Source: Schmidtea polychroa (taxonomy: Eukaryota). Taken from it: a stretch of DNA of 64,000 bases. Below the pieces are notes generated by a model. It was not told the origin of the DNA and ran no database searches. It saw only the letters and a list, made by a program, of their open reading frames with translations. The translations under genes were made by a program, and so were the position numbers. Within the stretch, counting starts at the first letter, position 1; every line of letters begins with the position of its first letter. Where the stretch lies: positions 135,904,001-135,968,000 of the forward strand of contig CM097886.1 in NCBI GenBank assembly GCA_044892525.1, in the 5' to 3' direction. Positions 1,505 to 47,636 of the stretch are shown piece after piece.

Positions 1505-4049
1505 TTACTAAGACCCAACACAGAACAAATTTATTGATTCTCAATTCAATTTACAAATCGTCACAATATTTGCACCTTGATTTTAATTAATTTTTGGCGG
1601 TTTTCGATTTCACTAATTTACCCTACTTTAATTTTATTTTTTAATTAATCCAAATATTTTAATGAAGGTTAAGGATAATCATATTTAATTAAGAATATTT
1701 AATTAACCATATTTATATTTTGCAGAGATAATAATAGAAAAAATAGTAGAACTTTTCAAAAACTCTTAAATGAGTAAATCTAATACACTTAGATTAGAAA
1801 TCATAAAAATTAAGTTTTAGGACTAGAAATAATTACGATTTTGATTTATTATGTTTCATCAATATGATCAGAATAAATTTGTTTTCTCTGTGAAGACTGA
1901 TTTATTATTGTCATAAAATTAGAAATGATTATCACCGTGCAAAGTTTCGCTATTCATTTGACAAATTTGTCAATCAATATGCGAACTAAATCTTAAAAGA
2001 ATTATGTCATATCAAATATTTTGAAATCTAACGCTTTTCAAGTCGCTTAAAGATAGATTAGTCAGCCATCATTCATCATGAGCTAATCTATCAAACAGTA
2101 AATATTCACCTATACAAAGACTTATACATTTAATTTAAGATTAATTCGGCTTTTAATTTTTTGTCATCTAAGTCTTAATTAAATGTTTTCCTAAAGAAGA
2201 AATAAGAGAACTGAAGTCATTTAATTATCAGTTAAATTCATACCAGTAGTATTTACTGCAACAGAATAATTTGATTATAACGGACATAAAACTAGGTTTA
2301 ATTTATTTTTTATATATATTTCAGTATCAAACACATCAGTAATGGCATTAAATAATGGATCATATTCCCTTGTAACTATTCTGCAGAACTTTATTTATTT
2401 GTTAAATTCACTAACCTATTTCTGAATATGGTCATAGTATTGTTGTAAAATTCGAATACTCATTCATGCTCCATTTATTTTATAAAAAATTTATAGTAAT
2501 ATTTTTGAGCTGTTTTCCTATATTGAGGTTTGAAGCTTTGCTTTATAGTGCATTGTTTAACAAATCATTTGCAATTTTATAATTAACAATACAGAATACT
2601 TAATAATTGATACACTACTTTGTTTTATCAACTTCCTGGTTAACAGAAGTTTAAGGGAATTCTTCAACAATTTTCCATAAACCACCAAAGAAACATACAA
2701 TTTTTAGGTTATATTATACAGTAAATAGATTACCTTAAAACATTTTGAACTCGACAGGGGAGTATTTGACACCTATTTCAAATGCAAAGTAAAATATATC
2801 CCTTTCAGGATTCAAATGTGCTTTATTAGCACATTTGTGTCAATAGCTATTCGCACAAATTAATTAGTTTTTCAAAGAAAGATTCAATACAATTTTGACT
2901 AAAATAGATATAGTTACTATAGATAAAATATAAGTTGAATACATTTTATTGCACAAAAATATAAATCTGTCTGCCTAAATTATTATAATTATTTGAATCA
3001 GTAAGACTGTCGTAAACACTATCTAATTTTCATTTCTAAGCTTTTCTTTACTTCAATTATCATTGAATAAATTATGATTAAGACAGAATTTCCAGACACA
3101 GAATTTATCACATACTATAAACTACAGCACTTCCAGTGTTAATAGAATTCAAAATTATTTATTTATAAACAATATAAAAATAAATCGTTAATTTGTTTAA
3201 GGAGTTTTTCTAAAAATAATAATTAATGAATAGGAATTTCAACATCCAATCATACAAAAATAATTTAATACAAGTTATTGAAAACACCTCACGCATACTA
3301 AAATTCCTTTTGACTTTATGAATGTTTTGTTAAATAAATGTTATAAAAGATAATAAATAAATCTTTAAGTCATTTAAAATCTATGATTATAACAGTTTAC
3401 CTATTGTAAATATATTGGTATAATGAAGGTTATTTAGTAAATATTTTCAAGATATAAGTGCTGACCAAATCGATAAGTAATGTAACCGTAAAAATGTAAT
3501 TAATATGAATGAATTAATTGCAATATTTCAAATAAAAGGAAATAATCGTTTATTTAAAACCCATTCAAATATAAAATTGACTAATTTGTAACAAGGCTGA
3601 CTATATGGTTCATTGTCTTGGTTCATTAATTTTGGTTATTTTAATTTTCTTTTTATTTGATTTCTCTCATCATAGATGGCATAAAAATATTTTGGTAAGT
3701 GAAAATTAAGTATAGCCAATACTTGGACAATCTGTTGCTTGAATTCTCTCGTTTAATTCCACTATTTTTCTATAAATAGACAATGTAAAACGTTCTTCAT
3801 TTAGTGAAGATCAAAGATAATTCTGAATTCATCGTAATCGCGAAGCAATTCACCGCTGAAGCTGTCTCTGATGGAAAAAAACATATTTAATTGATCATCG
3901 CGATTTCATATATTTTTTCGCACGTAACGACAAACTATGGCGAAGTGATGTTCAGGAAGGTTGAATGGTGACAGTTTGCTTTGCTAGTCCTTAAGTGACA
4001 TCAATATATCTGGCTGAGTACAATGACAGAGAAACCCGCGTATTTGTAA

Positions 4050-5467
4050 TGTTGGGCACCTGGGGAGGGCATTTGTCGACTGGTGTGACTAGGGGTTATC
4101 GTTGTGATTTATTCATGCCAGATGCCCAAATGATTTGTTAGAAAAATATTCCCTCCCGTGTACCCATGACTACGAGTCTTGTTGGTGCTGTACACCGAGG
4201 TCGGAACCTGTGAGCAGGTGAGCTCCGTTGCCAAAACTACTCCTCACAGCATTCGCGGTTCGGGTTCGGAATGCCTTAGAAGGACTTACATCACTAAATA
4301 ATCTGCCTCTGGTCCAAGTGAGGTCTTTCGATCGGTCTATGCCTTTGTATCGATGTACTTACAGTGACAAACTCAACATTCCGACAATTGACGAAACAAA
4401 GTAATTTATATAAATTCACAGACAATCAGTTTTATTCTACTAATATGAAATAATAATTAAGAAACACCAATTCCATAAGGGAGTCCTGTCGAATCAGATA
4501 ATTTAAATGTGAGTTTGCCACGATATTGGGCGTTGTATCACTGGAGAGGTTGCGACGATAAGATATTTGTGGTTGGATGATTTGCTAAACCATTTCTCCC
4601 TCTGCCAACATCGCATCGATGTCGCACTCCAAAGCAGGGTCGAGAGGTGGCTGAGAGAGAGAGACAGGCACGACTTTGACGGGAGTGAGGATCTTGGTTG
4701 AAGATACTTCCTTCGTCTGAGAGGCTGCAAATAAAGTCGCCTCGAGGGCTGCCATCTCCTCTCGACGTTTCTTGGTTTTCTCGGCCCGTGTTAGCCGTTT
4801 CTTCCTCTTCTGCTTACTAGTGACTGGCTGTGTGGCTACGGCCGCAGTGGCCTTGGCGATGACAGCGAGAATTGGAGACACTGGAGTTTGGCCATGAGCA
4901 CCGCAACAAAGAGATTGAGCGGCCTTCGGGAGAGTCAAATCGTGATGAGTGGGAAAGAGATTTCCTTTGACTGTTATTGGGTATTCCACTACTCGCGCTT
5001 TCAGTTCAGCGTCCGAGTATATGCGATGAAGGGCAGCCGATTGTGCCTTGATGGTGAGTCTCTGGCTCAGATTTTCCTGCAACAAGCTGTCGCGGCAATG
5101 TTCAAGTCGGAGAATTTTTATGCGAACCTCCTTCATACTGGCAGGGGTGAACCATGTCCCCTCCAGAGTGTCGATTTTGCGTTTCAATGATCCTATATAG
5201 TCGGCCGATTGCTTCAAGAAGGCATTTTTGTCGGCGCACGAGAAGCAGGGTTTCGGGCCGGTTGGAGGAAGGCTTGGTTAATGTCTTTATTCTAATTTCT
5301 TGTGCTCTTTTTTATTATTTAATTTTTCTATTTTTTTAGGTAATTATTTTTACTATTTTTCTATTATTTCCCTGGTTTCTCTTTTCTCTAGGCTAGCTTT
5401 CCCCCTTTATTTTCTATTAATTATAAACTTGAGTATTATTATTTATTTTTTGATCATCAGCCCAACA
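4050..5467 (-). mobile_element. Complete TGTTGGG-family element / putative solo LTR (copy B, 1418 bp)
   Basis: Ends TGTTGGGC...GCCCAACA; 4-bp TSD GTAA at 4046-4049 and 5468-5471; internal ORF and conserved terminal structured region. Confidence 0.85.
4585..5217 (-). CDS. Element-encoded 'EGTW' coiled-coil/basic protein (ORF2 of copy B), probably a spliced exon
   Basis: 210-aa GC-rich ORF. In-frame upstream KPCFSCADK; LKRKIDTLEGTWFTP and LTRAEK motifs shared with copies C and D. Confidence 0.65.
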   Translation of the reverse strand: MKQSADYIGSLKRKIDTLEGTWFTPASMKEVRIKILRLEHCRDSLLQENLSQRLTIKAQSAALHRIYSDAELKARVVEYPITVKGNLFPTHHDLTLPKAAQSLCCGAHGQTPVSPILAVIAKATAAVATQPVTSKQKRKKRLTRAEKTKKRREEMAALEATLFAASQTKEVSSTKILTPVKVVPVSLSQPPLDPALECDIDAMLAEGEMV

Positions 5468-6049
5468 GTAAATTATAAGAAAGGTCCTTATAAATCATGT
5501 GGCTGAGTTCAAGGACGTTATTTATGCCTCAAACGTATATCAAATCACTATTATTTCACAAAAATTACCTTTTGGTGAATAGAATAAGACACTTTATTAA
5601 TTTATTAGTAATCTCCATTTAATTTTCAACTATAGATCAATGTTTTCTATTTAACATAAATTTTCGGCATTGCATAAAAGTTGTATTTTATATTTTAAAT
5701 TAATTTTATTGGATAGAAAATTGTTGTGTTTATTGAATCGCTGATGCGTTATAAATTAAACAATTACATCTCTGATTCCAATAGTGTTTTATCAATTCAC
5801 AAATTTACAATTTCAAACTATATAACCTTTATTAATAATCACAATAGATAGTACAAGTTGCAATTATAACCAATTAACTCGAATATAGACAATTATCCAG
5901 AGTTTATTACGTCACTACATGAAGAATAGCTCTCCGTTTATAAGTCACCAATAACATTAATAATAACTAATCATAGATCGATTTAAATACAGGAATAATA
6001 TACTCGATTTGTTCAATTGCTTTGACCACAATTATTCCTTTTTCCCATT

Positions 6050-6830
6050 TTGAACTTATTAATTAATGATGACCTTTGTTTTAATTTCTTGTTTGCTTTT
6101 TAGTGTTTCAGTTACATCGTTCTTTTTACTCGTATCTCGCTGCTCTTTACCATATTCAATTCTTTCTCAATTGCCACTCTCGCTCTTTGCATTACCATTG
6201 TTTGAATTCCTTCTATTGTGATATGATTGATTCCAATGTCTGCATTTCGATCATTTTCTTCTCTGTTGGATCATCAGATATTTTATTGGTTGTGGGCGAT
6301 TTCCTTTTTCTGTACTCGTCCAGCGAACATATTTTCCTGGTTACAGGTTCGGCACAATTTATGTCGTCTTTTCACTGCCTCTCGAGAGCTAAATAAACTA
6401 TCCGGATTGCTTCCATATCTTCCAGAGCTAAATGATTTCCTTGTTGCGTTTTTATGCCACAGACTTATTTCGCTACCGCTGACAATTTAAACCATTGTCC
6501 CTTTATTGTTACCTTCCTTTTAAACAGCGCTTCAGCTCTGGCGAGATCACGAACTCCTCATAGTTCATTCGGGTTTACTCCACTGTATACCAACTCATTC
6601 TGCAAATCATGTCCAACTAGAATTTTTCTAGCTGTCAAATTAATGGATTTTGCTCATGCTTTGATAATAGTCTTCTTGGTTCCTGCACATTTTTTCCATG
6701 ATTCCGTAAATCTGTGTAACGAAATTTTTTAGCTTTACTCTTGGGGTTATCGGGAAGTTATACAATATTTTCCCTGTATATTCAATCAAGCATATTGATA
6801 ATGGGATCATTCGGTTTTCTTCACTTACAC
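6050..6830 (-). pseudogene. Decayed REX4/ISG20-like DEDDh 3'-5' exonuclease followed by a K/E-rich segment shared with the Gypsy gag-side region
   Basis: Manual translation: SICLIEYTGKILYNFPITPRVKLKNFVTQIYGI..KILVGHDLQNEL..RDLA..TQQGNHLALEDMEAIRIVY. 6065-6095 (atgacctttgttttaatttcttg) recurs at ~38675-38700. Confidence 0.65.
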
Positions 6831-7012
6831 CATAAATATAATGTTTCTTCTGATTCCTTCATTTGACAGCCTTTTCCGCAAAAATAGGTGGTTCAAAGTG
6901 GTTCCAGTGAAGCTCAAAATGAAAACTTCGATGTGCTCGAATGAATAGACTCAATGAAGAGACCAAATAAAAAAATATCTACTTCTGAAGTGAGATTCGG
7001 TGAAGACATTAC

Positions 7013-8260
7013 TGTTGGCGTGCTGCTAGGTCCGCCTTGCCTTTTAATATTTGTCTAGGGAATGGTGGTTTCTCACTTAACTTTCTCTCACAGATTTGCT
7101 GAACCTAAACAGTACTCCAAATGATCACGGCATTATACCCATGAATTGCTTCATGTTGGTACTGTATCATGACGGCGATATATCATAAAACAGGTTAACC
7201 CCTACCTTTGGACTACTCATTCATGGTACCCCGGCTTACTTTCCATGACGACCGATAGAAGGACTTACGTCTTATTTTTCTTATCCGTTCTCATTACGAA
7301 AATCTTGACCTTTTCCCCTCCTCGGAACACACCATTACACATCAGTCAATGTCAAACGAAGAAATATAAATCATCATTACCATTGGAAATTTAAGCTGAA
7401 AATTTATTGCAACTAAGGCTGTTATTTCATACACTGAAGATAACCAGTTCAAGGCGTGAAAATTGAGTAATGAAATTACACTAAGTGAAATAAGATCTCG
7501 TGAGAGACATTCTCATTGATTTTCAACTGCGGCTTAAGCGAAAAAAGCTTCCAAATCGAATATTTCGGATGCATTTTCCTCCCATGTCACACCTGCGGCA
7601 GCAATAACGCGGTATAGCGTGATGGTAATAGATGATGTCGTCGGAACTGCCTCGGTATTCTCATTTGTGACACTCGCATTCTGCTTGTTTTCCTTTTCTA
7701 TGATACGTTCTTTCTGCCGGTTCTTGCGCTCAGCTCTCAATAGTTGCCGGCGTTTGAGCTTCGTTTGCTGTTTTGAAGGGTTAGGTATTCTTAACGTCTT
7801 GGTGATTTAGCTTCCACTCAACTACTGCCAGTAATAATAACTTCCGGGGTGGTAGGTGAAAGATCGGCTTCTACACACCCGTAACACGACTTCCCTGATT
7901 ATCTCTGAGCGCTCTCCGAGCAGCTATTGTGAACTAAATAAACTTTATCCTCTTCCTAGATCAGAATGTAGCCGATTTTCTTAGTTACCGTTGCCTGAAC
8001 GGACACTTTATGTAACGCTTCTGATTGCTCTTTGATTTACAACCTCTGAGATCGACTTCCTCGATCAAACTGTCGCGACAATGTTCGCTGCGATATAACT
8101 TTTTCTGGATTTATTTTACCTGTGCCGGGGTAAGCCAGGTACCCTCAAGGCGATCTATCTTCCGCTTGAGCAAACCGACTTGAGATTGTAGGGTCTTGAT
8201 AGTCGCATTTTTGTTTGCGCACGAAAAGCAGGGTCGGATAGTATACTAGGTTGTTGAGTT
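7013..8260 (-). mobile_element. TGTTGG-family LTR-like element (copy C); 5' boundary uncertain
   Basis: 3' end ...CACGCCAACA at 7013; conserved structured region 7013-7270; decayed ORF2 at 7534-8250. Confidence 0.75.
7534..8250 (-). pseudogene. Disrupted 'EGTW' ORF2 of copy C
   Basis: RPCFSCANK..LKRKIDRLEGTWLTP..EHCRDSL, then KLKRRQLLRAERK; stops and frameshifts present. Confidence 0.7.
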
Positions 8261-8999
8261 GATAATCAGTCTGTAAAAAGGAGAAATCGCTAACACGATT
8301 TAATTCTTTAAGGAAATGAAAACGAAGATTTGTAATTCGGGTAAAATTTCACCTGTTGATGTCCTTACGTGTATCACTAAGAAAAATCTAAAGAGTAGAA
8401 ACAATGAATCGAAATTAGCGAGTAGGAAATCTACATCAGAGAATCAACTTAAATAATAACTACTATATTAACCCTTTAACCACTGAAATTGAAATACGAG
8501 GAATTTCGTCATGATGATTTTTTTTAGTATATGAATTCACCCAAAAACATATAATTATGAAGTTTATTTGAAAAAAATACTTACCTGAGAACACCAGGTA
8601 AAAAAAATGAAAGACCGTCTGTTGACCGTCATGGTGGATTAGGCCAAAAAATAAAACTATTAACATATGTAAAAGATAATAATATTATTTATTTATGCAT
8701 TGTGATACAACTTAAAGCAATTTTTTGTTTTTGAGAAGCATAAATGGTGATTACATTTCATGCAAAATGTATGCGTATTAGATTTCTTACAGTGTTTACA
8801 TGATTATTAATTTTTTTTAAATTAAAAAATAATTTCGTGAATCTTGGTTAAATCAATTAGATTGAGCTGATAATCGTGGATTATGTTCCTGGATTGAAAG
8901 AAAGTTCTTGCTAACTACAAAAAAAATTCAATAATGTAGTAGAAATCCAAATCGATCTCATCTATTCTGTTGACGCAGATTATCCATAAGATTGTGTCT

Positions 9000-16915: not shown

Positions 16916-17120
16916 TTAGAAGGTATTTTTAATATAGGTAATAGCATCGTCATAGTAGAGTTGAGGACCGTAATCTTGTTCGGGGTACCCTCGGGTTGCT
17001 CGTACTGGTGGGTGTATGTGATCTTCAGCCTCTCGGTTGACAATTGGGCCGAAATGTGAAGTCTTTTTCACGGGTCCGTCGCCGGTAGATGCCAGAGAGT
17101 CGACAGAAAATACTGGAGTA
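16916..17120 (-). CDS. Small GC-rich exon ('ORF X') with a decayed homolog at 59350-59500
   Basis: DGPVKKTSHFGP..HPPVRATRGYPEQDYGPQL; nucleotide similarity gcgacggacccgtg..cacatt(t/a)cggccca..cccacca..g(a/g)ggtacc. Confidence 0.45.
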
Positions 17121-20432: not shown

Positions 20433-20600
<168 letters not shown>

Positions 20601-23900: not shown

Positions 23901-26900
23901 TATGATCATGAAAAAATATATGTTCATTTATTTTATAGAGGTTAGCTACTATAGACAAACAACGAAAACAACATGAATGGTTACAAAAAAGAATTCATAT
24001 AAACGAAGACTTATCTGATACTGAATCAGATGCACAAGAAAACGATGATGAAATTGTGGAAGAAAACAACGAAATTGAACTTTCCGATAGCGAAAATGAA
24101 CATTTTGGTAAGGATGTGTATTCTTTCATACTCTGAAAACGAAAGTGACATGGATATTACTGAGATATCTTATAATGAGAACAATTTGACCGAAAAATCT
24201 TCTGATGGGACTATATGGCAAATAGAAGGTGGAGAGTGGTAGACCACCAGCTTATCTCACTGCCTATGCTAAAAGAAACATCATGTTCGGTAATGTAATT
24301 AGTGCATTCCAGCTCATAATTGATAATAAAATAATGGATTATATCAAAATTTGCACTGAAACTTAAGCATGCAAAGTTTTGAAAAAGGAATGGACTATTA
24401 CAAATTTCCAAGTACGGGCTTTTCTAGCAATTTTATATGCACGGGAAGTATATGAAGCAAAATGCTTGAAAACTTCTCATTTATGGTCAAAGAAATGGGG
24501 ATCTGCCTTCTATTCGCAAACAATGTCTAGGGACAAATTTATGGAAGTCCTTAGATTTAAACGTTTTGACAAAAGAAATGAACGAAGTGAACGTTAGAAA
24601 ACTGATAAATTCGATTTAGTTTCCAGAATATGGAATAGATTTATTGAAAATAGTCAGAATTGTTTCAAACCTGTCGCAAATATTACAGTCGATGAACAAC
24701 TATTTCCAACAAAGGCTAGATGCCGATTTCTTCAGTACTTGCCAAATAAACCAGACAAATTCGGCATAAAATTTTGGTTAGCATCGGATGTAAAAAGTAA
24801 ATATCTTATAAATGGTTTCCCATATTTGGGTAAAGATGAAATGCTAACGTCAAACATACCTTTGGGTGAATATGTAGTACTCAAACTTCCTGACCCATAT
24901 TTAGGTTGTGGACGAAATATAACCACAGGCAATTTTTTTACTAGTCTTCCACTAGCAAAAAAATTACTTTAGTTGGAACTATCCGTTGGAATAAAAGAGA
25001 AATGCAAAAAATTGCAAAAACTAAAAATGATAATATGATTCGATTTTCAACAAAATTTTATAAATCAGAAAATTACATTCTCAACATTTACATAAGGAAA
25101 CCAAAAAAAGAAAGTATTGTTACTAAATTTAAGCCTTGAATCGGTTAAAATTGAAAACAATGCAAACCTTGTCCCAGAAAGTGTAGCTTTTTCCAAAAAA
25201 ACTAAATGTGGAATTGATGTTTTGGATCAAATGGCGCGAAAATATAGTGTAAAAGCAGGATCTCGTAGATGGCCTCTGCAAGTGTTTTATAACATCTTAG
25301 ACTTAGCAGCAACAAATGCATCGAGTTTATATAAAGAGATTACTGGAGTAAAGATATCAAGAAAAAATTTTATTTTTCAATTGGCCGAAGAACTAGCAAA
25401 TGACAACATAGATGCCCCCAGTTCTAGTTCCAACCTACCATCTAATATATCAAATATACGTAATCGTAAGTCTTGTCAAATAGGTTTGTGTAAAAAAATA
25501 GATCTAACAATTGTTGGGCTAGAACTGATTTCTAGACCCAAACTTATAATTGTGACTGAAACGTGTAGGTACACAACATGCAAAAAGCAAGAAGTATAGT
25601 TAAATATTAAAAACTACAACAAATAAACAATAGTGATTAAAGGAAAAAAACAACAGAAACCTAAACACAGAAATTAAATAAAATTATCCAAAAGCAAGAA
25701 GCGATGCAAAAATAGAACTCAAAAACAACCAAATAAACACAGATAAACATAAAACAGACTCGAACAACTTAAAAGACGATAAAAACCGAAAAAATTCCAG
25801 AAAAACCCAGAACATTCCATTAAAATGGCGATGACCATCACAAAAGCCAGCTAGAACAATAAAAGTTAGAGAAAATTAATAAATTAGTATTAAAAATAAT
25901 AAATCTTAAAAAGAAATTCACAAAAGATCAGCTAGAATAAAAAAAAAATTAAAAATTAACATGGAATGTTCTGGAACCGTTCCAAATCCACCATGGACGG
26001 CAAATTAACAAAAAATAATTAAAAAATAAAAATATAAAAATAAAAACAAAAATTATGGCACAAAAATTGCCATTAAAAATAGCAAAATCGTAAAATAGAA
26101 AATTCTGGAATAAAAAGAATTCGAGTTTGTTTTAATGCATCAATACATACACGTGTACAAAATAGGTATATATACCGACACGTTTCGGGCATAATTTAGT
26201 CATTTATGCCAAAATTTTTTGTTGACCAAATTTTGAAGGAAACTGATAGTAGGTATTTTTTTTTGATTGCATTGTTTTTATGTTAACCATGTATGTAATT
26301 ATTTTAATGAACACCATTCTATAATTAAATTATTCTTACTAAATTCGTTGTTATTTAGATAAATATGACTGATCAGCGGCGTCACTGTGAGTCGCTATTC
26401 CGTCCTGCATTCGGGAATATCGAATAAAAATTTTTTATGCAATCTACCAACATGCATTATTCGTACTATATTAATCGATACTATACGACTTTTTTTTGTT
26501 CGGGTCCTTCGGAGGTCTAACTACTTCATGGTCCTGCCATGGAGTTAGGTCGAGGAAAACCTCCGTCTGACTCTTTGTATTTATGTAAGGTCGACGGTAA
26601 ATGGTTGACTCAACACTCAACACTAAGGTTTGTGGAAGTGGTCACAGTGGGGCCATGGAAGCAATATTCTTCCCGACTTTGTACGTAATACAAATTTAAA
26701 ATCAACATTAAAAATCAATGTCAAATATCTCTACAATAAGGTCTTAATCTGAGTAGAACTCATACCTAACCTTACACAATTCTGCAATCACCTTAATGAA
26801 GTCGGTTGATCAATAATAGCCATTCCAGTTGTACTCAGACATATGCCGAATCCGATTTTGATAATAGAAATTTGTAGTAACTCAAGTAATAGAAATGATA

Positions 26901-28039
26901 GTGTCCGGCATATGTGTGGGTATAACCTCATCTAGTTGGGACTTCGAGATTAATTACTATGCGAATAAATTCAATCTACCTATAGATATTACAAATCTAA
27001 CCGATTAAATTACAGATCTATTAATTCAAGCGCCCATCTTAAATATTTATAAAGATATAAGTACTTATTATAAAATTTACTAATTATAATCAAAATGCAA
27101 GTTATAGATAATTATGAGATTTTAGATATAAATTATATCGACCCTGAAAATATAAATTGATAATGGAGAAGTCTTGATAATAAGTTTTAGATGGGGATAG
27201 TAGTAAATAAATTGTAGCATAAGGATCAATTAACTTAGAACTAGTTATGTATAGACTGTAGACTCGTCAATATTCTGAAATTATACCCTAATAGTACCAA
27301 GAAATCTGCAAATAATTTTAGAAGACAATGTTGATCAGAAAGGGTACTCATAAAGAAGTATACGAGTCGACTATAAAATTATAAACCCTGAATTATGAAA
27401 TGACGAGTGGTGAAGTAATAAAATGATAAATTGTAGAACCTAGAATTACTATTTATAAAGCATAAAATTACGGATTATAAAATATAAATTTATAGATTAC
27501 AAACTACGAAATTGTAAATAGAAAACGTAAAATTTCAAAGTACAAATTCATAAATTGAAAAACATAAAACTATAAAAGATAAAATTAGAAATTATAGAAT
27601 ATAAATTTATAAATTGAAAAAAAAAATTAAAAACTATAAATCATAAAATGTAAAATTGGCAATTATAAAATATAAATTTATAAACTACAAAATATAAAAT
27701 TATAAATAGTAAAGCAAAATTATAAATTATAAAATATAAAGTTATAAATTATAATTAGTTATATATAAAATATTTAGGAATATAAATTATAAATAATTAT
27801 AAGTTCTAACTATAAGAGCAGGGAATACGAATAATTTGAGGTAAAGTCGTATTATAAAATATAATTTGTACCTAGGTATAACTACAAAGTATAAATGTAG
27901 AAATGAATTATAATTAGCTATAACCAAAATTTGACCATGAAGATATAAAGTACAAGTAGCTACTATAGCTTACATCGAAGCATTCGACGTTAAAATTAGA
28001 AATGTAAATTAGTTTTGTTAAAATTATAAAGTATGAATT

Positions 28040-28389
28040 GAAAGTGATTATATTTCCAGTTATCATTCTAAATCGTCACCATTATTATTATNNNNNNNNN
28101 NNNNNNNNNNNNNNNNNNNNNNNNNNNNNNNNNNNNNNNNNNNNNNNNNNNNNNNNNNNNNNNNNNNNNNNNNNNNNNNNNNNNNNNNNNNNNNNNNNNN
28201 NNNNNNNNNNNNNNNNNNNNNNNNNNNGATATTATCCTCATTATCATTATGATTATTATTATTATTATTATCATTATTACCATTAATGTTATCATTAAGA
28301 TTACTATTATTATTATTATTATTACTATCATTATTATTATTATTTATTATTATCATCATTACTACCATTAATATTACTATTAATATTGC

Positions 28390-28438
<49 letters not shown>

Positions 28439-28505
28439 ATTATTATTATTATTATTACCATTAGTACTATTATTATTATTATTGTCGTTATTATCATCGC
28501 TAATA
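28040..28505. repeat. (ATT)n microsatellite with N gap (28092-28227) inside copy D
   Basis: Long ATT triplet array. Confidence 0.9.
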
Positions 28506-29592
28506 CTATCATTGTCCCTATTCATAAGTTGTAGTTCACAAAAATGAAAATCTAAATCAAATATTGATTTAGGATTTCCCCCCGGAGCTAAATTTGGAAT
28601 CAACTTTTTTGAACTAATAGGAATGACTGAAATACTAGAAGGTTATTTTTAGCAACACCCCTCCCCCTAGAAAATGTTAACACCATCTAGGTTAGCTGAG
28701 GATATGGGTGGGAGTACCTGATCCAACATATAAACTACCCCCCTTTAAATCCTGAATGAATGGCAAATATATAACTTCGTTTATTAGAAGATTAAATTAC
28801 TATTAATAAAAACATAAGATTTTTCTTTTATTATGAACAACAAATCATATTACCAAGCCACTAAGAATCAAAAATTATGAATCGTAGGATGATCTCCCAA
28901 AACTAGGCTCATCCATCTCCAACCAGGAAAAGTTATCATCCAACATTCCTGGGAATCAAAATTTACGGTAAATAAATGAATTACCTCAAATGCATGAAAG
29001 TCGACTGTACCACTCATGACGAACACAACCAAGGGAGAGGTAAGCAAACGAGAAACTAAGCTCGTCGCTAATACCCATCACCCCGGCGTGCCCGAATTCA
29101 GTAGTAATTCGATAATTTCCAGAAAATGGCAAAGAATTGACATAAGAATTTTTAAATTACCAACTAGTGGTAAATAACTTTTGGTGAATAAAATAATGAT
29201 TTAAAACAAAGTGACTTTTGGGGAATTATCGATCGGGGCATAAACTTTCTAGTATTAATACTCAACATTGAAAAAATTTTTTCTTTCATTTGATTAATTA
29301 AAAGGATGATAAAATTTTTCTTCCAATTAGTTAGTTAACAAGATACCCAATAAATTAAATCGGAAGTTTCCCGTTAAATGTATGTATATTAATTATGATA
29401 GCTTTGATGATTAATTATTAAATGTATATGCATTGATTGGGATAACCTTGGTGATTAATTGTTGAATATATATACATATTAATAACTTTGGTGATTAATG
29501 CACTATTTGTGTAAAATGTTGTATATTTTATCGTACTTTAAATTTATAAGTCACACGGGCTGCACACGGGTCTTAATATTTATATTACAGAC

Positions 29593-29958
29593 ATGTCGCA
29601 ATCTAGCTCTAGCAGTGACGAGGGTACTGACCAGCAGACGATCACCCGTCTCCGGACCCGGTACATCTGGTACCATATACATCGGTGGGGTCAGGGAAGG
29701 GACCTGGATTGCGCAGCTCGAGTAATCCGGACGGGCCCCGAAGCGGATGCCCCGGCATGGGTGAAGGTGGAGCCGGAGAATAACCGGCTGCAGGAGGCTC
29801 GAGACCAAGCGGCCTGGGACGTGGAAGCCGCACAGATTCGACTAAAGAGAATAGAGGCCCAAATCCGGGCCAAGCGAGAAGGGGTGTCCCTGGAGGAACT
29901 CGAAGAAACCGAAGCAACTCCCCGAAAGAGAGGGAGGCCCCGCAAACATCAGTCGTGA
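29593..29958 (+). CDS. ORF1 of copy D: small protein with C-terminal AT-hook
   Basis: Intact 121-aa GC-rich ORF; TRLRTRYIWYHIHRW shared with 42909-43289; ends PRKRGRPRK. Confidence 0.7.
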   Translation: MSQSSSSSDEGTDQQTITRLRTRYIWYHIHRWGQGRDLDCAARVIRTGPEADAPAWVKVEPENNRLQEARDQAAWDVEAAQIRLKRIEAQIRAKREGVSLEELEETEATPRKRGRPRKHQS

Positions 29959-30252
29959 TTATTGGAGGACAATTAACATAACCTAGTCTATTCCCTTAGT
30001 ATTAGATATCGTCAAGTGTTTGTGTTTAAATAAAGTATTTTGATTTAGTCTATTTTATTAGTATCATAGTTGAGTATTAGAAACCGTAGAGTGGTTGTTC
30101 TTACGTAAAGTATTCTTCCTTTCTGTTGGTTGCATGAGTCAGTTGGTAGATGGAGGGGTTATAAAAATGGCCTAGCGATAAGCGCGAATAACAATATTAT
30201 TTAATCTTACCAATAATTTATTCTATAAAATTTTTTTTTGGTATAAAAACTA

Positions 30253-30738
30253 ATGAGACTCCTTTTAGTGTACAAGCTAATGGAGAACCTGCTTAAAGAT
30301 CGAGAGCAGGCTCAGAAACGTGCTGACGAACTCCGAGTCCGAGTGGACAAATTGAAAGGAAAATGCCGGGAGTTCGAGGGGACCTGGTTTAGTCCCGAAG
30401 CGATGAAGAAGAAAACTGCCCAGATCCTCCAGCTACAAACACAGGCCGCTCAGGACCAAATGGAGATCCGCGCCCTGAAATTGCAGGTGCGGGCACTCGA
30501 GACCGAGCGAAATGAGCAGGTGGTGCAAGAGGCCGTGGCAAGACAAATCCGGCCACTGACCGTTGAACTCGCGGCGATATATCCCCCAGCCGCCGAAAAT
30601 AAGCCCAAAAGAAAACGGCTTGGGCGAAACATTCGGGAAAAATTGAAGAAGGTCAGGCTGGCCGAGTACGAGCGGCAAGCAAATTCATCGCAAGCGTCTA
30701 CGACAGGGTTGGCCAGCTCTACCAACAAGCCGAGTTGA
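30253..30738 (+). CDS. ORF2 of copy D: 'EGTW' coiled-coil/basic protein; likely acceptor before 30269
   Basis: Intact 161-aa ORF; FEGTWFSP, heptad stretch, KPKRKRLGR; same acceptor phase (AG|TG) as copy E. Confidence 0.7.
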   Translation: MRLLLVYKLMENLLKDREQAQKRADELRVRVDKLKGKCREFEGTWFSPEAMKKKTAQILQLQTQAAQDQMEIRALKLQVRALETERNEQVVQEAVARQIRPLTVELAAIYPPAAENKPKRKRLGRNIREKLKKVRLAEYERQANSSQASTTGLASSTNKPS

Positions 30739-30929
30739 ACTTTTATTCTGGTTTATATATCCTTGTAGTGTGTTGTGAATATTTTGTAGTATTAAAAGAA
30801 TATTTTTTTTGTTAAAATAATACATATTTCGTAGTAATAAAATCATATTCGATATATTTTATGATTGCCTGAGAAATGAGAGTTTGTGCGTAAGGTTGGG
30901 AAAACAATTTTGATAAGGGACCTAAGAAA

Positions 30930-31136
30930 TCGGACACACACCTTCTATCGGTAGTCCGTGAACCCATGGAGTACTCGACAATTACAGTGCCTCGATGCGC
31001 TCACTTTTTGCGAGTACTCAACCCTTGGTACAGTACCAACGTTGATTACTCAACGGGTACCAAGCGGAAAGACAATGTTGCATGTTGGGTTACGCTGGTA
31101 ACAGCACTTAAACATTCGACCACCAGTAACCCACCA
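30930..31136 (+). other. Conserved covarying structured terminal region (putative R/U5 RNA element)
   Basis: Same stems with compensatory changes in copies at 4050, 7013, 41487, 41699, 50438 and 58866. Confidence 0.7.
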
Positions 31137-31412
31137 CAATAAATGTGATAAATATGTATGTGGAAAATGTATGTTATTTGTAAAAGTGTAAGAAATAAAG
31201 CTATTATAATAAAAATACATTGTTTCAAATTAAAATTAATAAGTTTCAAATGAAACTAATAAACGTATGTAGTGAGCCGTTACACGGCCTTAACAAAATC
31301 TAATTGGTTGCTTTCATGAAGTAAAGACAAATTATTTACTATATATTTGTTGGAATCACTCGAATCATTTAGTGTAGCGTTTTTAAAATGATTAAATCCA
31401 ACCCCACCACAT

Positions 31413-31461
31413 TGGTGTCAGAAGTAGGATTTGAACCCATGCCTCCATTCGGAGACCAGAA
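31413..31461 (+). promoter_or_regulatory. Primer-binding site complementary to the 3' 49 nt of tRNA-Leu, including CCA
   Basis: Reverse complement TTCTGGTCTCCGAATGGAGGCATGGGTTCAAATCCTACTTCTGACACCA follows the metazoan tRNA-Leu(CAA) 3' half; starts 1 nt after the 5' LTR. Confidence 0.85.
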
Positions 31462-32096
31462 TTATATAAATCATTATAGTAGCTTGACGTAGCCATTTTT
31501 TATTATTAAACTTGAAATTGCTTTCTTTGAAAATACGGAACCATTTCTACATCTTGGCTCAATTGAAGAGATTTTGGGAATTTACATGTTCATGAATTCC
31601 AATGCAAGATTCTACACTACTTGGCTGAATTACTTCTGAAATAGAATTACTTTGAAGAACTAAATTTTACTGTGTCTTTCCCATATGAAATTGTGGTGAT
31701 TGCGAACGGGGAATGGATGAAGATGTTGGTCTATGAGAGCTACCCTTAAAACTATTAGGATACGAATACAGTTAATCTTGATAATAATAACATGGCATCG
31801 AATTTGCTTTACTCGCCTGAGATTGATTAATAGAGCCTGATTGATAAGAAGAATTGCATGAATTTTGATTGACTCTTGGAATGAGATAGAGTAGACTCAG
31901 ATGTTCCAACTAATGTGCAATTATAGGTGATATTTGATTGGCCATAATTGTGTTATAATTGATACTTATTCGTTATTGATCGCCCATTTAGACTACGTTA
32001 CTTTTTGTATATAATATTTATATAGATTTTGTTAAGGCCGTGTAATGGCTCACTACATCAGCCCCATGGGAGGGTAGCGCCGCACCAGGGCCTAAT

Positions 32097-32450
32097 AAGT
32101 TCCAAATATTAATAAAAAATCCTGGAACGAATAAAACACAATCTGTTCCAGTAGACACGAACACGACAATTAATTGTCTTTCTCAAACATATGGCAGTTT
32201 AGCCAATCACAAATTCCGTTTTCTCTTGTCGTACGACACCATGTTTTCCGACAGTCATACCCTGGGCGACTACGGAGTGACACCATACAGCGTCATTCAT
32301 TGTTTGTTGCCACTTTCTGGCGGTTCCTCCGATTTGGAGAATGACTCAGGTAGCAATCACAAACCGACAAAACATAAACGTAAGTCCAACAATCGACGTA
32401 TTTATGTCAATATTTTTTGGATGAGAATAACTCTCCACTTACTTGGCTGA
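32097..32450 (+). CDS. Ubiquitin-like domain ending LSGG, in front of gag
   Basis: Open frame FQILIKNPGTNKTQSVPVDTNTTI...FSDSHTLGDYGVTPYSVIHCLLPLSGG aligns by eye with ubiquitin along its length. Confidence 0.75.
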   Translation, partial: KFQILIKNPGTNKTQSVPVDTNTTINCLSQTYGSLANHKFRFLLSYDTMFSDSHTLGDYGVTPYSVIHCLLPLSGGSSDLENDSGSNHKPTKHKRKSNNRRIYVNIFWMRITLHLLG

Positions 32451-32887
32451 TTGCTACCGAACTAGCATTTGAGGGAATCGAGATAACCAGTTCACGAGAC
32501 AAATACTGTCGCATTTTGCCGTTGAATCACCCGACGATATTAAGTAAACTTTCGTCCGTGATCCTTCGTACTTCGCCTATTAGCGTCAAAAATCCTTATG
32601 AAGAATTGCGTACGGCAATCCTCGATATTTTTAAAGAGCCTACAGCTGCCGTCTTCACTAAATACTTTAAGACGCAAACTTTGGGTAGCAGAAAACCATC
32701 ACGGTTTTTGCAACACGCTATGGCAGAACTAACTCAAATACATCCTGAGACTGCTGTGGATCAAAAACTCTTGAAGCAATTTTTTCTGTCTGCTTTACCG
32801 CCACATGCACAACAAATTTTAGCGCTTTCTTCAACCGCAGATGTGGTAGAGCTAACAAAGATGGCCGACAAGATTAACGAAGTTTGA
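32417..32887 (+). CDS. Gypsy-type Gag capsid-like ORF (DUF7041-like)
   Basis: PLTWLIATELAF..PYEELRTAIL..LGSRKPSRFLQH..FFLSALP..ILA. Confidence 0.75.
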   Translation: MDENNSPLTWLIATELAFEGIEITSSRDKYCRILPLNHPTILSKLSSVILRTSPISVKNPYEELRTAILDIFKEPTAAVFTKYFKTQTLGSRKPSRFLQHAMAELTQIHPETAVDQKLLKQFFLSALPPHAQQILALSSTADVVELTKMADKINEV

Positions 32888-33426
32888 CACATCTGATACT
32901 GAAATTCACTTAGCTTTATTTCATTTCAACAAATTCATTAATCACCGATTTTCTTTTAAGATACTATCCACTTTTGACAAATTGTCACTACACTTCGATT
33001 GACATCTTCCTACTAGACCTTTCATCAACCTCTACTCTTGGGTCCCTGTGCGCTCCGCGACTTTCCGTGGGGCTGATGTAGTGAGCCGTTACACAGCTTT
33101 AACAAAATCTAATTGGTTGCTTTCATGTAGTAAAAACAAATTATTTACTATATATTCGTCGGAATCACTGGAATTATTTAGTGTAGCGTTTTTAAAAAAG
33201 ATTAAATCCAACACCACTACAACGTAATTTTAATATTTTCGTCAAAATGACGGGTTTCAGTAAAAATAGGTATTTACTGTCAGTAAATCTAGTGTTAAAA
33301 CAATGGAAGATGGCCATGATTACTACGAACTAGGCCATATTTCGGAATTAAAAGGAGCACATTAACAAGCATCTTCATGAAACATAGGAAGACTGGAATT
33401 TTATCCGCAGGAACAAGAGGAGCCAA

Positions 33427-34994: not shown

Positions 34995-37900
34995 CTGCAG
35001 CGTTGGTACTGTACCAATGGGGTGATTGTCAAAGTTACAATTTCTTCACAAAACATAATAATAAATAACAATTAACAAATAAAGTATATTTAAATAATGT
35101 AACGGTTCCTTTCTATTATTAAAACAACCATAATTAATATACATTAATTATTGAACATCAATCGCCTCCTCTTCATTTTCTTTCCATCTCTTCAGCCATT
35201 CAATTCTTCTTGATTTGGTTGAGTTTGGAAATTGTAATTCCACTTGTTATTGAATTCCCTCCTTCTTTCGTCTATGTGGTTCCAAACGAACTAATATTAA
35301 ATTCTTGTTATATGCCAAATTTTTTCATCCAATCACGAAACATTGATCCTTCAAAAATTCTTCCTCTATCTTTAAGAATGCTTTCTCGTCTACCAAACCG
35401 ATATATCCAATTATTCAGAATGACATTCAAAATCGTTGATTCACACTGTGTACTTATTGCTGATAAACTGACCAATTTACTAAAACGATCTATTATAACT
35501 ATCATATATTTCTTACTTGCTTTTGTTTCCATATATACAATGTCCACTACTATTTGTTCTAAAAACCGTTCTCCTGTTCTTAGCAATAGGATTTCCTTTG
35601 TTCTTCCTTGATCAATCTTTCTAATAGCACAGATCTTGCATTTATATATACATTCCATAATACTCTGATTCATGGAGGGCCAAAATAGAAATCTTTTAAA
35701 TAACATAAGATCTTCTTAATGCCCAGATAGCATAATTCAATTTGAAAATAATTTACCAATGTTTTTACGTACGTGTCAGGTACTACAACTGTAATTTTCC
35801 TATCTGTATTAATCATCAATATGTCGTCTTGTGTCTGTAATATTTTTAAATACTTGAAAATATTACTACTGATTGTTTCATAAGATATATGAGCATCGTC
35901 TCCATTAAGTTGTGATATGATTTCTGAAATAATTTTGTCTTCGTTTTGCTTCTGTTTAATTATTTCCATTATGTTTGAACTTCCTTACAGACTATTATGT
36001 ACCGAGTTCTACACTTTGTTTCTTTGGCGTCTTTGTGTTTCATCTGACAATGAGCGCATATCGTATAATTTAAACGAGACATACCATCTGCATTTCCATG
36101 TTCTTCTCCCTTCCTATATTGTAACTCAAAATCGTATTCAGATAAATTTTCCATCCATGTTTGAAACTGTGGGTTCTTTGGTTTCTTTGTCGTGTTCATA
36201 AACACCTAAGCCTTATAATCTGTTCTGGCTACAAATCATCTTCCATATAAATATTGTCTGAAATGTACAATAAACTCGTAGAGTGCCAACAGCTCTTTTC
36301 TAGTAACACAATATCCCATTTCATGTGTTGTCAAATGTCTTGAACCACTTCTTCCGTACCACCTTTCTTAATCTGTGATAAAACTGCACCTATGGCTCCA
36401 AAACTAAATAGTCGATCTGCCCTTGAAAATTCTAATATTGGTGCTTCACACAAAATTTTCTTTAAATTGATAAAGCTTTTTCTACATTCTTCAGTCCAAA
36501 CAATCATTTTATCATTACCTGTCGTTGCTGAATACAAAGGTGCTGCTATCATTCAATAATTCTTAAAAAACCGTCGATAATAATTCGTTAAACCTAAGAA
36601 TGATCTCAATTCTGTGACTCTTTTTGGTTCGGTTGCATTTTCAATTTCTGAAATCTTTCTTTTATTTGTTTGAATTCCCTTGTTACTCACAATATATCCA
36701 ATGAAATTTAATACCCATTTATAGAACGCGCATTTCTCAGGATTAACTTTCAAACCGGCATCTCTAATTCGTGTGAATACTTCAAATAGAAGTTTATCAT
36801 GAGTTTCCTGATTTTCTGCATATATTAAAATGTCATCAAGATATAAAACCACTCCTTTGAAAATTAATCCTTCCAATATCTGATGCATCAATTTCTGAAA
36901 AGTGGCAGGGGCTGTTGACAAACCAAATGGCAACCTTTTGAAACAGAACTGTCCCTCTTTTGTACCAAATGCTGTCTTGGTTTATAAATTTTCATGCAAC
37001 TCTACCTGATAATAGGCCTGACCTAAATCAATTAATGAAAATATTTTTGACTTACCAAGATAATCCAATAACAACTGCATGTCTGGCATCGTAAATGAGA
37101 ACTTTTCTGTGACTGAATTTAATAACCTAAAATCTAGACACATTCGTATAGAACCATCTGGTTTTCCAATTATCACAAGTGGTGTGTTCCATGGACTCTG
37201 ACATTTTCTCACAACTCCAGCTTCTATTAAATTCTCTACAAACACTTCAAATTTGCTTTCTAAATGCATTGGTTGTCTTCTGGGATTTTGTAAAATCGGA
37301 GGACCTGAAGTCGTTATTTCATGTATTATTACTTTTGTATGACCTAAGTCAAGACTGGATGCCATAAAAATCTTGCTAAACTTAGATATTAAAGTACCCT
37401 ACTTCGAATTCTTATCCAACGTGAGCGTCGATAACGCAAACTCTAACCTATCAGAATCTGCAAATCTCTTAGTAACCAATGCGGCATCAATATTATGGAC
37501 TTTTTAAAGCTCCATGCCAAATTTTCTCATGGTGTCTACCCCTCTTATGAAATCTGGATGAATTTTTCTGACAATAATAACATTCAATTCTCGACATTTG
37601 CTGTTCCATTTTGCAACGATATTTACGCTTCCGAGAGGTTTCTCGTCTTCTTTTGAAAATACTCCACTCAACCGTACTCTGCTTTCTATCAATGTTGGAC
37701 TGCCAATCAATCTCCAACATTTTTCACTCATCACACTGATTGAAGCTTCTGAATCCCATAGCATTTCAACATAAAATCCTTTTATTTCCATCGCACTCCA
37801 CTTTCTATCATCATCCTTCTTTAACATCACATCCTTCGTTACAACATTTCGTTTTTTATACTCATCTACTATCTCGACCCTACTGACGAAATGTAAACAA

Positions 37901-38790
37901 CAGGGTCTTCGTGTTTTTTTTCTCTCAACATTATGCATGACTGGTTCTATCAATTCTTCTTATCTATCGTCATCTTCTTCGTGTATAACATACACTCTTC
38001 GTTCCGGTCTTTGAGTATTACTTCTTGATTTTGCTAACAAATTACAACTTCTAAATGAATGACCTTCTTTACCGCATATTGCGACACTACGTAAAGAATA
38101 GCTTTTCTCGTATAATTTCTGTAACAAGAATAATCACTAACCGTCAACCACTCAATTACAGCGTACTTTGATCGATTGTTGTATGGCTTTGACCACAAAT
38201 TTATTCACTCCACTTTCACTTTATATTCAATTTTACAAAAGATTCTCGTTACTCTCTTGCTCAATTATTAATTATCAACCAGTTCTCTTCTGCTTATCTG
38301 GTTTCACTCTGGTTTGAACTCTGTTTACTTCTTCTTTTAATTCTCTTTTAATTGTCTCGTTAATTCTCCTTTCAATTCTTCAAATTTAACTCTTTTAGAA
38401 CTCTCGAACTCTCTTCTACTTTGCTTCTTTTCTTCTCGTTCTAACTTCTGTGTCTTCCCTGTTATAGCTTGCCCCATTTGCGGTACTTGAGATAATTTTG
38501 TTTTCTATTTTCTTTTTCCTCGATATTCCCCGCTATTTCAGCCTTATCCCTGACAAATGTTGAGATATGCCCTATTTTACCCTTTCGTGTTGAGCCGACT
38601 TTTCCTGCCATTTCACTATCTTTTGTTTTTCTATAATTTGAAATTCCTCCTTCGTTTGTACTTTTTAATTAACAATGACCTTTGTTTTAATTTCTTGTTC
38701 GCTTTCTTTTATCTTTCTTGTTTTTCATTTCTTTTTATTTCCGTTTTCTTCTCCGAGTTCCCATAGATCGTCATGTTTGTCATGATGATC
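34995..38790 (-). mobile_element. Decayed Ty3/Gypsy gag-pol with PPT and truncated 3' LTR
   Basis: CCHC knuckle ~38045-38090; protease LWDSEAS; RT (MCLDFRLLN, MPFGL, YLDDIL); RNase H; integrase (HLG-like, VDIV..IIDRFSK); purine tract at 35162-35174 then TG. Confidence 0.9.
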
Positions 38791-38819
38791 TTCCTCCAGG
38801 TAATTTACAGAACAGGTAA

Positions 38820-39990
38820 TAGATTTTTCATCTTGCAAAATAATTTCATCAACCCTAAGAAAATTTGTGATATTATTGTTTTCAACTCTACTTATCCAAA
38901 CTTTATTCTTCTGTAAATGCTGATGTTTTTTCGTTTGCTGTGATAATGTTGCTGAAAGTTTTTGTATGGATAAATTCAATTCATTCAAGTGTTCAAAATG
39001 CCAGACAAATAGGCCAATCCTAGTATATTATCTCTTTTCTCAAAAACTTATATTAAATCAGAATTTTGTTCTGTAAGAAATTTAATTATTTCTTCTCCCA
39101 TTTCAAATACTCTAACATTAAACCTTTCGAACGTCAGCGTACTTCCGTGTGGTAAAGAAGCGTAGTGTATTTATCACCGACTTCTTCACAAAAACACGAA
39201 AAATTCGGCTATTCAGAGCCCGCTCTTTAATAAAATTTACAACTTTGACCGCAGTATCTAGGTGTTTTAACAATGTTTCGGGTTATGTTTTTATTGCAAG
39301 TTCATGACGGTACAAGATACAGCGTGTCACGGTTATATCTAGAACTTGTTTTTTTCATACTTTAATCCATAATGTTTGCCTAACATTGAAGGAGCACATA
39401 CTGATCCTATTAGTCTTAAATCAATCTATTGTTCGTTAAAAAATCTTTGATAAAATTATATACGTCAATTCTTTTTGTCGACAACGTTAGTGGTTAGAAA
39501 ATAAAACATCTTCAAGCATTTCTTTTCCTTTTATATACCTTATAAAAACTAGCAACTGACTACAATTTGCAACATCAGTTGATTCATATAATTGTATACT
39601 GATTTGAAAAGGATTTGTTGTGATATTTTCCAATGTCTTGTATCAAATATCTTTACTAATATCAACAATACGAGAATGAATGGACAGGTATCTGTTGGTT
39701 AGTTAGTCTGTTCGGCTGAACTTAACTTAATTTTTGCTACTTCACTTAAGCATGGTTAAACTAACTCCACAAATTATGTGAGGTTTCGTTTTCAAGGAAG
39801 CTTCAACCAGTGGTGTCTGTATTGCATCTGAAGTATAATTTGTTATCCAACCACGGGTGTCAAAACGTACCTTCTTAGATTTTCGTCTTTCAAGCGAATT
39901 GCCTACATCCTTGCTGTCACGGACATTGGATTCATAGTCTTTCTTTAAATAATTGCAACCATGAATATATTTTTTAATTGTTGACAAAAG
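38820..39990 (-). mobile_element. hAT Buster/ZBED5-like transposase fragment
   Basis: QLYESTDVANCSQLLVFIRY, VVNFIKERALNSRIF, LLYHTEVR, LAYLSGIF..LNELNLSIQ. Confidence 0.8.
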
Positions 39991-47635: not shown

Positions 47636-47636
47636 T

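Follow-up and report, generated by a model that had tools for sequence, protein, structure and literature searches.

Protein-coding repeat units with a conserved 3′ RNA fold in Schmidtea polychroa, candidate solo long terminal repeats of a large Gypsy-type element

We analyzed a 64,000-nt stretch of Schmidtea polychroa DNA (the window; all coordinates are positions within it). It is AT-rich animal DNA (31% GC) with N gaps, host genes, and many broken transposons. Dispersed through it are copies of a repeat with TG..CA ends, labeled Z, A, B, C, D, E, F, and G (Table 1), which together account for ∼12 kb, roughly a fifth of the window. The copies carry short open reading frames (ORFs) and a conserved RNA fold near the 3′ end. 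They are probably solo long terminal repeats (LTRs) and LTR fragments derived from a large LTR retroelement that existed in several related lineages and was most likely of the Gypsy type, with spliced regulatory genes in the unique 3′ (U3) region.

A preliminary description of the window had listed at least eight copies of a single family of giant elements. Seven of the eight are solid, whereas the copy at 41487 (D) is weak. It consists of an 11-nt terminus identical to those of C and E and a partial motif (nhmmer E 0.32–0.7), it was detected neither by the structure-based nor by the sequence-only RNA model (see below), and in local alignment 5–6 of 297 random windows, some of them true copies, scored equally high against C and E. 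The term “giant” suits copy C (5.6 kb) but not the other copies, and the length of C includes an N gap, AT-rich arrays, and ∼1.05 kb that is missing from Z. Nor does a single family hold up. The 3′ ends at 7013, 41699, 50438, and 58866 are related to copy A or C, and by blastn the 3′ ends form two groups, C/E/F and A/G/B, that are barely linked. Synonymous sites of the ORF shared by four copies (ORF1) are near saturation, indicating that, as judged from their sequences, the copies are several old and deeply diverged subfamilies or lineages and not one young family.

Two copies, A and C, have both ends and a 4-bp target-site duplication (TSD), in agreement with the preliminary description. The inverted termini of A form a perfect 8-bp repeat (TGTTGGGC). 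Those of C are imperfect, with mismatches at positions 3 and 8 among the first 10. Beyond 8 bp, the ends are asymmetric. Both ends of C can be fixed without recourse to the TSD: the 5′ end lies where the 86.6% match to copy Z stops, and the 3′ end lies where the 71–76% matches to copies E (41699) and F (50438) stop. Copy C interrupts a piggyBac-type transposase (Pfam DDE_Tnp_1_7) within its Cys-rich tail, which restarts right after the TSD. As a control for chance, 453 loose TG..CA pairs were examined across the window; 4 of them share a flanking 4-mer, compared with ∼3.4 expected. Because a TSD next to loose termini is not above chance, the two TSDs count only because the ends are set by homology (C) or by a perfect 8-bp repeat (A). 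For B, D, E, F, and G, a search for matching right ends with a TSD returned only chance candidates with 2–3 mismatches, and the 5′ ends of B and E were sought and not found. Copy Z is 86.6% identical to 25512–26136 and 71.6% identical to 27188–27801 of copy C; the segment of C between them (26137–27187), absent from Z, has no evident TSD and reflects either an insertion nested within C or a loss from Z. The eight junction 4-mers (TTAC, GTAA, CAAT, GTTT, ATAA, ATTT, TTAT, and GTAA) are all AT-rich. Three of the eight (copies A, B, and Z) are GTAA or its complement TTAC, a possible target preference.

No transposase or reverse transcriptase was found inside the copies, as had been stated before: none of the five element ORFs matched Pfam, and among 84 stop-free frames in and around the elements (84 of the 87 listed, the 3 left out all being microsatellite), 83 had no Pfam match and one was a host AMMECR1 exon. 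The ORFs contain 45–60% GC, compared with 31% for the whole window. The earlier mention of GC-rich short ORFs is correct in this respect, but ORF1 was found in only four of the eight copies (A, B, C, and E), where the frames are tied together by a GTW-x-P motif. A second frame (ORF2) is recognizable in C and E by an ITRLRT..W motif. The two ORFs occur in the same order in C and E, at similar distances to the 3′ end (1495 versus 1458 nt for ORF2 and 754 versus 639 nt for ORF1). ORF1 is open in A and C and interrupted by stops and frame changes in B and E. Pyrimidine-rich AG sites were seen by eye ahead of ORF1 in B, C, and E and ahead of ORF2 in C. The C-terminal RGRP of ORF2 in copy C is presumably AT-hook-like. 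In ungapped ORF1 blocks of 59, 56, and 19 codons, nonsynonymous differences (pN, 0.28–0.30) are rarer than synonymous differences (pS, 0.71–0.89), a ratio biased by the choice of blocks by protein similarity, most severely for the 19-codon block. Judging by these comparisons, the ORFs are genuine coding sequence, and ORF1 is under purifying selection.

ORF1 of copy A has 10 relatives among 1.84 billion representative proteins (30–41% identity, E 3.5e-10 to 3.6e-5), all of them single records; a first profile made from the window copies alone had given no matches. Nine of these 10 relatives carry an unrelated domain that differs each time (glycine cleavage P, RPL21, SNF, CRAL-TRIO, ABC, PTP, S8, actin, and hAT). 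An 11th relative, found when A, C, and 8 of these 10 sequences were aligned and used as the query, also contains unrelated Pfam domains, which brings the chimeric records to 10 of 11. Chimeras with differing partner domains are expected when gene predictors capture the exon of a dispersed repeat, and the relatives may represent such an exon, incorporated by splicing into the gene models of some other animal's genome. A profile built from the relatives alone recovers ORF1 of A (E 2e-27), C (9e-7), and B (1e-3) and, weakly, that of E (0.54).

In the AlphaFold model of ORF1 (predicted local distance difference test score, 68; predicted template modeling score, 0.34), long helices lie on either side of a kink at the GTW-x-P motif, and a separate, confident basic helix is located at 164–192. 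According to this model, ORF1 is a coiled coil with a basic, often Arg-rich helix. It belongs to no known family. Arg-rich 15-mers (10–11 arginines) occur in 4 of the 11 relatives, and copies A, B, and C have mixed Arg/Lys at the same place. Sequence searches of the PDB gave no match for ORF1 or ORF2, and a Foldseek search of ORF1 against viral and PDB libraries gave none at E ≤ 0.001. The ESM Atlas contained nothing at ≥0.9 for ORF1 of C and no usable match for ORF2. None of 86 pattern matches in prokaryotic genomes was confirmed, and an exact database look-up of four window proteins found no match.

The conserved structured 3′ end of the preliminary description is well founded. A fold of ∼135 nt, located 110–250 nt from the 3′ end, has three parts. 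The first is a small hairpin whose 7-nt loop is conserved, the second a long stem that contains an internal loop and an inner hairpin, and the third another hairpin next to a conserved ACCAA. When the copies were folded separately, C, E, F, and G formed both the long stem and the last hairpin, A only the stem, and B only the hairpin. The folding z-score was lower on the sense strand in six of seven regions. Sense values ranged from −1.0 to −3.2 in these six (A, B, C, E, F, and G), whereas D, the exception, had +1.1. A covariance model trained on C, E, and F found the held-out copies G and B (Table 1), with copy A also held out. A sequence-only model, the scores of which are not strictly comparable with those of the structure model, gave 17.6 bits for G (E 2e-4) and 10.4 bits for B (E 0.04) and missed A. 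When copies A, G, and B were aligned with MAFFT, unfitted and with the structure taken from the fold of G, 91.7% of the cells were paired and compensatory changes occurred at 7 of the 32 pairs (0 of 500 shuffles), although three sequences per group make covariation tests thin. Invariant G-U pairs are found in both groups and point to a function as RNA. On the strength of these alignments and models, the fold is conserved with compensatory changes and is strand-specific. A search of the whole window with Rfam gave three matches at E ≤ 1, none of them in the elements and all below the gathering score, and ARAGORN reported no genes in the window. A hepatitis delta virus-like pseudoknot in the 5′ hairpin was dropped on inspection by eye because the pairing that it needs is not conserved. 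Pair counts from a further alignment (A8) were left unused, as weak or spurious matches, fitted to the model, make up 6 of its 11 rows.

Table 1. Repeat copies, reading frames, and RNA folds in the window (coordinates in nt)
Feature	Position	Strand	Description
Copy Z	335–1504	−	5′ part of a C-type element, enters N gap; 5′ terminus 1504
Copy A	4050–5467	−	Complete unit, 1418 bp, perfect 8-bp inverted termini
TSD of A (GTAA)	4046–4049 (left); 5468–5471 (right)	+	
Copy B	7013–8310	−	3′ end at 7013; broken ORF1; acceptor-like site ending 8271
Copy C	25512–31136	+	Complete unit, 5625 bp; TSD CAAT at 25508–25511 and 31137–31140
Arrays inside C	27418–29499	+	AT-rich tandem arrays, ATT microsatellite, N gap
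Copy D	41487–41698	−	Weak 212-bp remnant, C-type 3′ end, abuts copy E
Copy E	41699–43300	−	3′ end, RNA fold, broken ORF1, ORF2 motif
Copy F	50438–50700	−	3′ end and RNA fold only
Copy G	58866–59110	−	3′ end and RNA fold only
ORF1 of A	4585–5277	−	230-codon open frame; coiled coil, basic helix, acidic-hydrophobic tail (predicted)
ORF1 of B	in copy B	−	Broken: in-frame stop inside 8057–8236, frame changes downstream
ORF1 of C	30280–30738	+	152 amino acids from ATG; acceptor-like site ending 30268
ORF1 of E	42171–42338 (best block)	−	Broken by stops and frame changes; acceptor-like site at 42408
ORF2 of C	29593–29958	+	121 amino acids, ITRLRT..W motif, coiled-coil-like stretch, C-terminal RGRP; acceptor-like site ending 29590
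ORF2 motif of E	43101–43199	−	
RNA fold of A	4150–4296	−	Weak (10 bits, E 0.7) under the C/E/F model
RNA fold of B	7131–7273	−	36.3 bits, E 1.7e-7, held out of the model
RNA fold of C	30931–31064	+	
RNA fold of E	41778–41914	−	
RNA fold of F	50516–50639	−	
RNA fold of G	58964–59105	−	39.8 bits, E 2.1e-8, held out of the model

LTRs of animal Metaviridae (Ty3/Gypsy) share the consensus TGTTRNR..YNYAACA, of which ∼7 bp are conserved (PMC3601003). The termini of copy A match this consensus at both ends; copy C matches it at the 5′ end and terminates in CCCACCA. A single LTR is expected to lie within a TSD of 4–6 bp, as A (GTAA) and C (CAAT) do. Together with inverted repeats far shorter than those of Ginger transposons, the strand-specific RNA fold, and the real ORFs, these termini favor an LTR origin over a DNA transposon. 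The earlier assignment to solo LTRs of a Gypsy lineage is upheld to that extent, but its link to Gypsy gag-pol is not, as no copy flanks pol. We infer the LTR-bearing parent, and the regulatory role of ORF1 is a prediction.

Several observations weigh against this interpretation. No pair of same-family, same-strand copies brackets an internal region or gag-pol in the 64-kb window. Neither a TGG-type primer-binding site (PBS) after the 3′ ends (0 of 7) nor a polypurine tract (PPT) before the 5′ ends (0 of 3) was seen, which is expected for solo LTRs and amounts to neither proof nor refutation. None of the 84 scanned frames encodes Burro-type internal domains, which in the giant Burro polyprotein include BIR, MATH, BCL2, and env, and none of the 11 ORF1 relatives is part of a gag-pol polyprotein, the longest (1025 amino acids) being fused to hAT. 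In copy A, neither an ATG nor a clear acceptor precedes the GTW-x-P motif by eye. Copy A also scores poorly under the RNA model of group 1 (C/E/F; E 0.7), and covariation within C/E/F is modest (3 of 34 pairs compensatory; 19 of 500 shuffles). Polyadenylation hexamers are present at −297 to −396 in five of six copies, mildly above a background of 0.42 per 110 nt, which makes them weak evidence. A likeness to the retroviral regulator Rev is a lead only: Pfam REV matched 1 of 10 relatives at E 0.0013, below the cut-off, and was seen neither in the window copies nor in the domain alignment of 10 sequences, whose weak matches are generic coiled coils. A nuclear export signal-like pattern after the basic motif is convincing in only two relatives (Leu-rich, P0006 and P0011), is Val-rich and doubtful in A, and is missing from C and from the tail of B.

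Cut-and-paste transposition, in which an integrase-like transposase (of Ginger2, an IS481EU-like element, or a TG..CA lineage not yet described) would mobilize the units as non-autonomous elements with cargo genes, would account for the 4-bp TSDs, the AT-rich targets, and the TGT..ACA ends, which also fit Ginger2 and some IS481EU families; moreover, A and C each consist of one unit within a single TSD, with no visible internal retroelement region. Ginger1 and Ginger2 resemble the copies in their TGTNR start and 4-bp TSD and, in the case of Ginger2, the AT-rich target (PMC2836005). However, their terminal inverted repeats (TIRs) span 40–270 bp with CCGG targets in Ginger1 and 45–297 bp with RTATAY targets in Ginger2 (PMC2836005), and the tabulated non-autonomous Ginger2 copy retains a 52-bp TIR, whereas the copies have a TIR of 8 bp (A) or an imperfect one (C), and no integrase-like transposase was found inside any copy. 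The eight junction 4-mers likewise disagree with CCGG/CCGT (Ginger1) and RTATAY (Ginger2). IS481EU elements do have short TIRs and 4-bp TSDs but are reported from parabasalids only (PMC10045372). As a cut-and-paste element also has no need of a strand-specific RNA fold with invariant G-U pairs, we regard this explanation as unlikely. An improbable explanation is that the unit itself is mobile, as a helper-dependent non-autonomous retroelement (similar to large retrotransposon derivatives or terminal-repeat retrotransposons in miniature, or a single-LTR derivative) whose internal region disappeared long ago and which a helper Gypsy copies via RNA, with ORF1 as the sole retained function. The high copy density, the lack of an internal region beside any copy, the conserved RNA fold, and selection on ORF1 would all agree with such a unit. 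Yet standard reverse transcription requires two LTRs, a PBS, and a PPT, none of which was seen by eye inside A or C, and in fragmented short-read assemblies with N gaps, full-length elements are apt to be collapsed or broken, which may explain the absence of a parent without a new mechanism.

Origin as the ends or fragments of an integrating DNA virus or of a Polinton/Maverick-like element with small regulatory genes is more improbable still. GC-rich orphan genes, a spliced organization, and an AT-hook-like motif would suit such an element, and Mavericks are expanded in some planarians, but Polintons have long TIRs and 6-bp TSDs, no viral protein matched structurally at E ≤ 0.001, and no polymerase, capsid, or ATPase frame is present among the 84 frames. 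There is only a very slight chance that unrelated repeats were lumped together by the generic TG..CA motif. Loose termini with 4-bp duplications do occur at the chance rate, the two 3′ groups are barely linked by blastn, and copy D is weak. Against this, ORF1 connects A, B, C, and E, the RNA model connects C, E, and F with G and B at E ≤ 2e-7, and C and E share order and spacing, so that lumping is largely refuted, copy D excepted.

If the units are solo LTRs, the following scheme would apply. An integrase would recognize the observed TGTTG..C(A/C)ACA ends and generate the observed 4-bp TSDs, and recombination between LTRs would later delete the internal region and leave one LTR with its TSD. 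The variable U3-like part would hold one or two exons behind the acceptor-like sites seen in B, C, and E, and these exons would probably be spliced from a donor within the full element's 5′ leader. In complex retroviruses, 3′ accessory genes are spliced from a 5′ leader donor in this way, the sag and nef genes overlap the LTR, and the response elements RcRE and RxRE are located in it. The product of ORF1 would be a coiled-coil protein that forms oligomers, carries a basic helix, and works in the nucleus on the nucleic acid of the element. Its predicted function is a guess: RNA export or processing is rated slightly short of an even chance, ahead of transcriptional transactivation, which is possible but somewhat less likely. 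The 3′ fold would be a cis-acting RNA signal in the repeat (R) or unique 5′ (U5) region, either a binding site for ORF1 or a leader signal for packaging or dimerization. Should the polyadenylation hexamers be used, the fold could lie downstream of them in U5 as a leader signal; should cleavage occur further 3′, it could lie in R as a response element. The response elements of HTLV and HERV-K are in R. That the spliced, Arg-rich coiled-coil ORF1 and an RNA fold bound by it form a Rev/Rex-like module wholly inside the LTR, evolved independently in a clade of flatworm retroelements, is a rather doubtful proposal.

The parent is perhaps similar to the planarian Burro element (GYPSM1), a Gypsy-like element of >30 kb with internal regions of up to 25 kb and accessory ORFs (PMC6431247), which implies LTRs of several kilobases. 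By description, not by sequence, Burro resembles the copies in these implied multi-kilobase LTRs, in tandem repeats (mentioned in a figure legend), in accessory ORFs, and in its AT-rich flatworm host; it differs in that its extra domains belong to the internal polyprotein and an upstream accessory ORF and not to genes in the LTR (PMC6431247). In rice, the LTRs of Retrosat2 exceed 3.2 kb (PMC3485330). Similar to the copies, solo LTRs of animal Metaviridae show short inverted repeats of ∼7 bp, an AATAAA-type signal, R/U5 regions more conserved than U3, and conserved stem-loops (PMC3601003). Unlike them, the copies are 1.4–5.6 kb long and contain coding exons under selection, and their parent is not seen in the window. 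The Caenorhabditis elegans Gypsy/Ty3 element Cer1 encodes the orphan protein CERV from a spliced mRNA, and CERV is required for export of the genomic RNA (PMC10309623). ORF1 is likewise an orphan of a putative invertebrate Gypsy/Ty3 element, with a predicted role in export and predicted splicing. The preliminary statement that such an organization is not recognized from invertebrate retrotransposons was therefore too strong, given CERV and the accessory ORFs of Burro. Rem, Rev, Rex, and Rec have an Arg-rich motif in common and, like the candidate system here, combine a small protein from a spliced message, with splicing inferred in our case, with a structured cis RNA (PMC2661877). ORF1, in contrast, has no significant sequence or fold similarity to them, has a long coiled coil, and comes from an invertebrate host. 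In the incompletely covered literature on Burro, planarian solo LTRs, and LTR-encoded ORFs in Gypsy, no description of this arrangement was found, and the available parts of PMC8532177, PMC11410931, PMC13465017, PMC13238120, and bioRxiv 10.64898/2025.12.11.693146 contain no LTR detail. It is quite possible that the family is already annotated as an LTR; what would remain unusual is that genes lie inside it.

Other retroelements are present in the window. A broken Gypsy gag-protease-reverse transcriptase-RNase H-integrase unit at 35100–39030 (−) shares gag-region DNA with 5905–6099. Its pol (35.1–39 kb) was considered as the parent and rejected, as it is not bracketed by family repeats. A 28–35-bp match to the last hairpin region of copy C at 34997–35031 (−; E 0.007–0.077; 28 bp at 34998–35025), just past the Gypsy integrase, was missed by the structure model and lies outside the apparent end of that Gypsy near 35099 (by eye). 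It is either a remnant or due to chance. An ordinary small LTR element at 31268–33221 (+) has 146-bp LTRs that are 92% alike, a 5-bp TSD (ACGTA), and no pol. Its first LTR is followed by a TGG-starting PBS and then by tRNA-like sequence, which we take to be Leu, and it contains a DUF7041 gag-like ORF (32384–32887).

A further decayed plus-strand copy possibly exists around 51473–51757 (+), where a 94-codon Pro-rich frame (E 0.06 with the ORF1 profile) lies upstream of weak matches to the structure-based RNA model (E 0.0026 and 0.29) at 52242–52511 (+). One member of a 72% repeat pair, 16954–17082 (+) and 59354–59484 (−), lies ∼250 bp upstream of the RNA fold of G, and the other has no family 3′ end nearby. 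Broken frames at 6400–6870 (−), ∼150 bp downstream of the 3′ end of B and upstream of the gag-like DNA, look by eye like a REXO4-type exonuclease; this suspected remnant has no Pfam match. A fold-back element at 47636–49948, with arms of ∼860 bp that are 93% alike and internal tandem repeats, sits in a second piggyBac-type transposase. Host genes or exons encode a short-chain dehydrogenase (40273–41067), a CDGSH iron-sulfur protein (45922–46266), an RNF10-like RING protein (53482–54888), and AMMECR1 (20433–20600). The RING protein has two database relatives at 31–32% identity, of which the named one is tapeworm RNF10 (32%); these two matches are a lead toward a flatworm host.

For genome annotation, the practical point is that the ORF1 exon contaminates gene models elsewhere, as in the 10 chimeric relatives. 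Should the parent belong to a Burro family that has been annotated before, the novelty would be confined to the ORFs and the RNA fold, the LTR itself being known. If the units are LTRs, protein-coding LTRs under purifying selection are not limited to vertebrate retroviruses, and the units would also define an orphan protein family and a conserved RNA motif that are both new, neither with a match in Pfam, PDB, or Rfam. As solo LTRs that occupy about a fifth of the window, they would furnish the genome with very many dispersed copies of a regulatory exon. Should the Rev/Rex-like module be real, each solo LTR could supply a trans-acting RNA regulator as well as an exon able to splice into host genes. 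In a planarian host, the units would offer a testable handle on the export or regulation of giant Gypsy/Burro RNAs.

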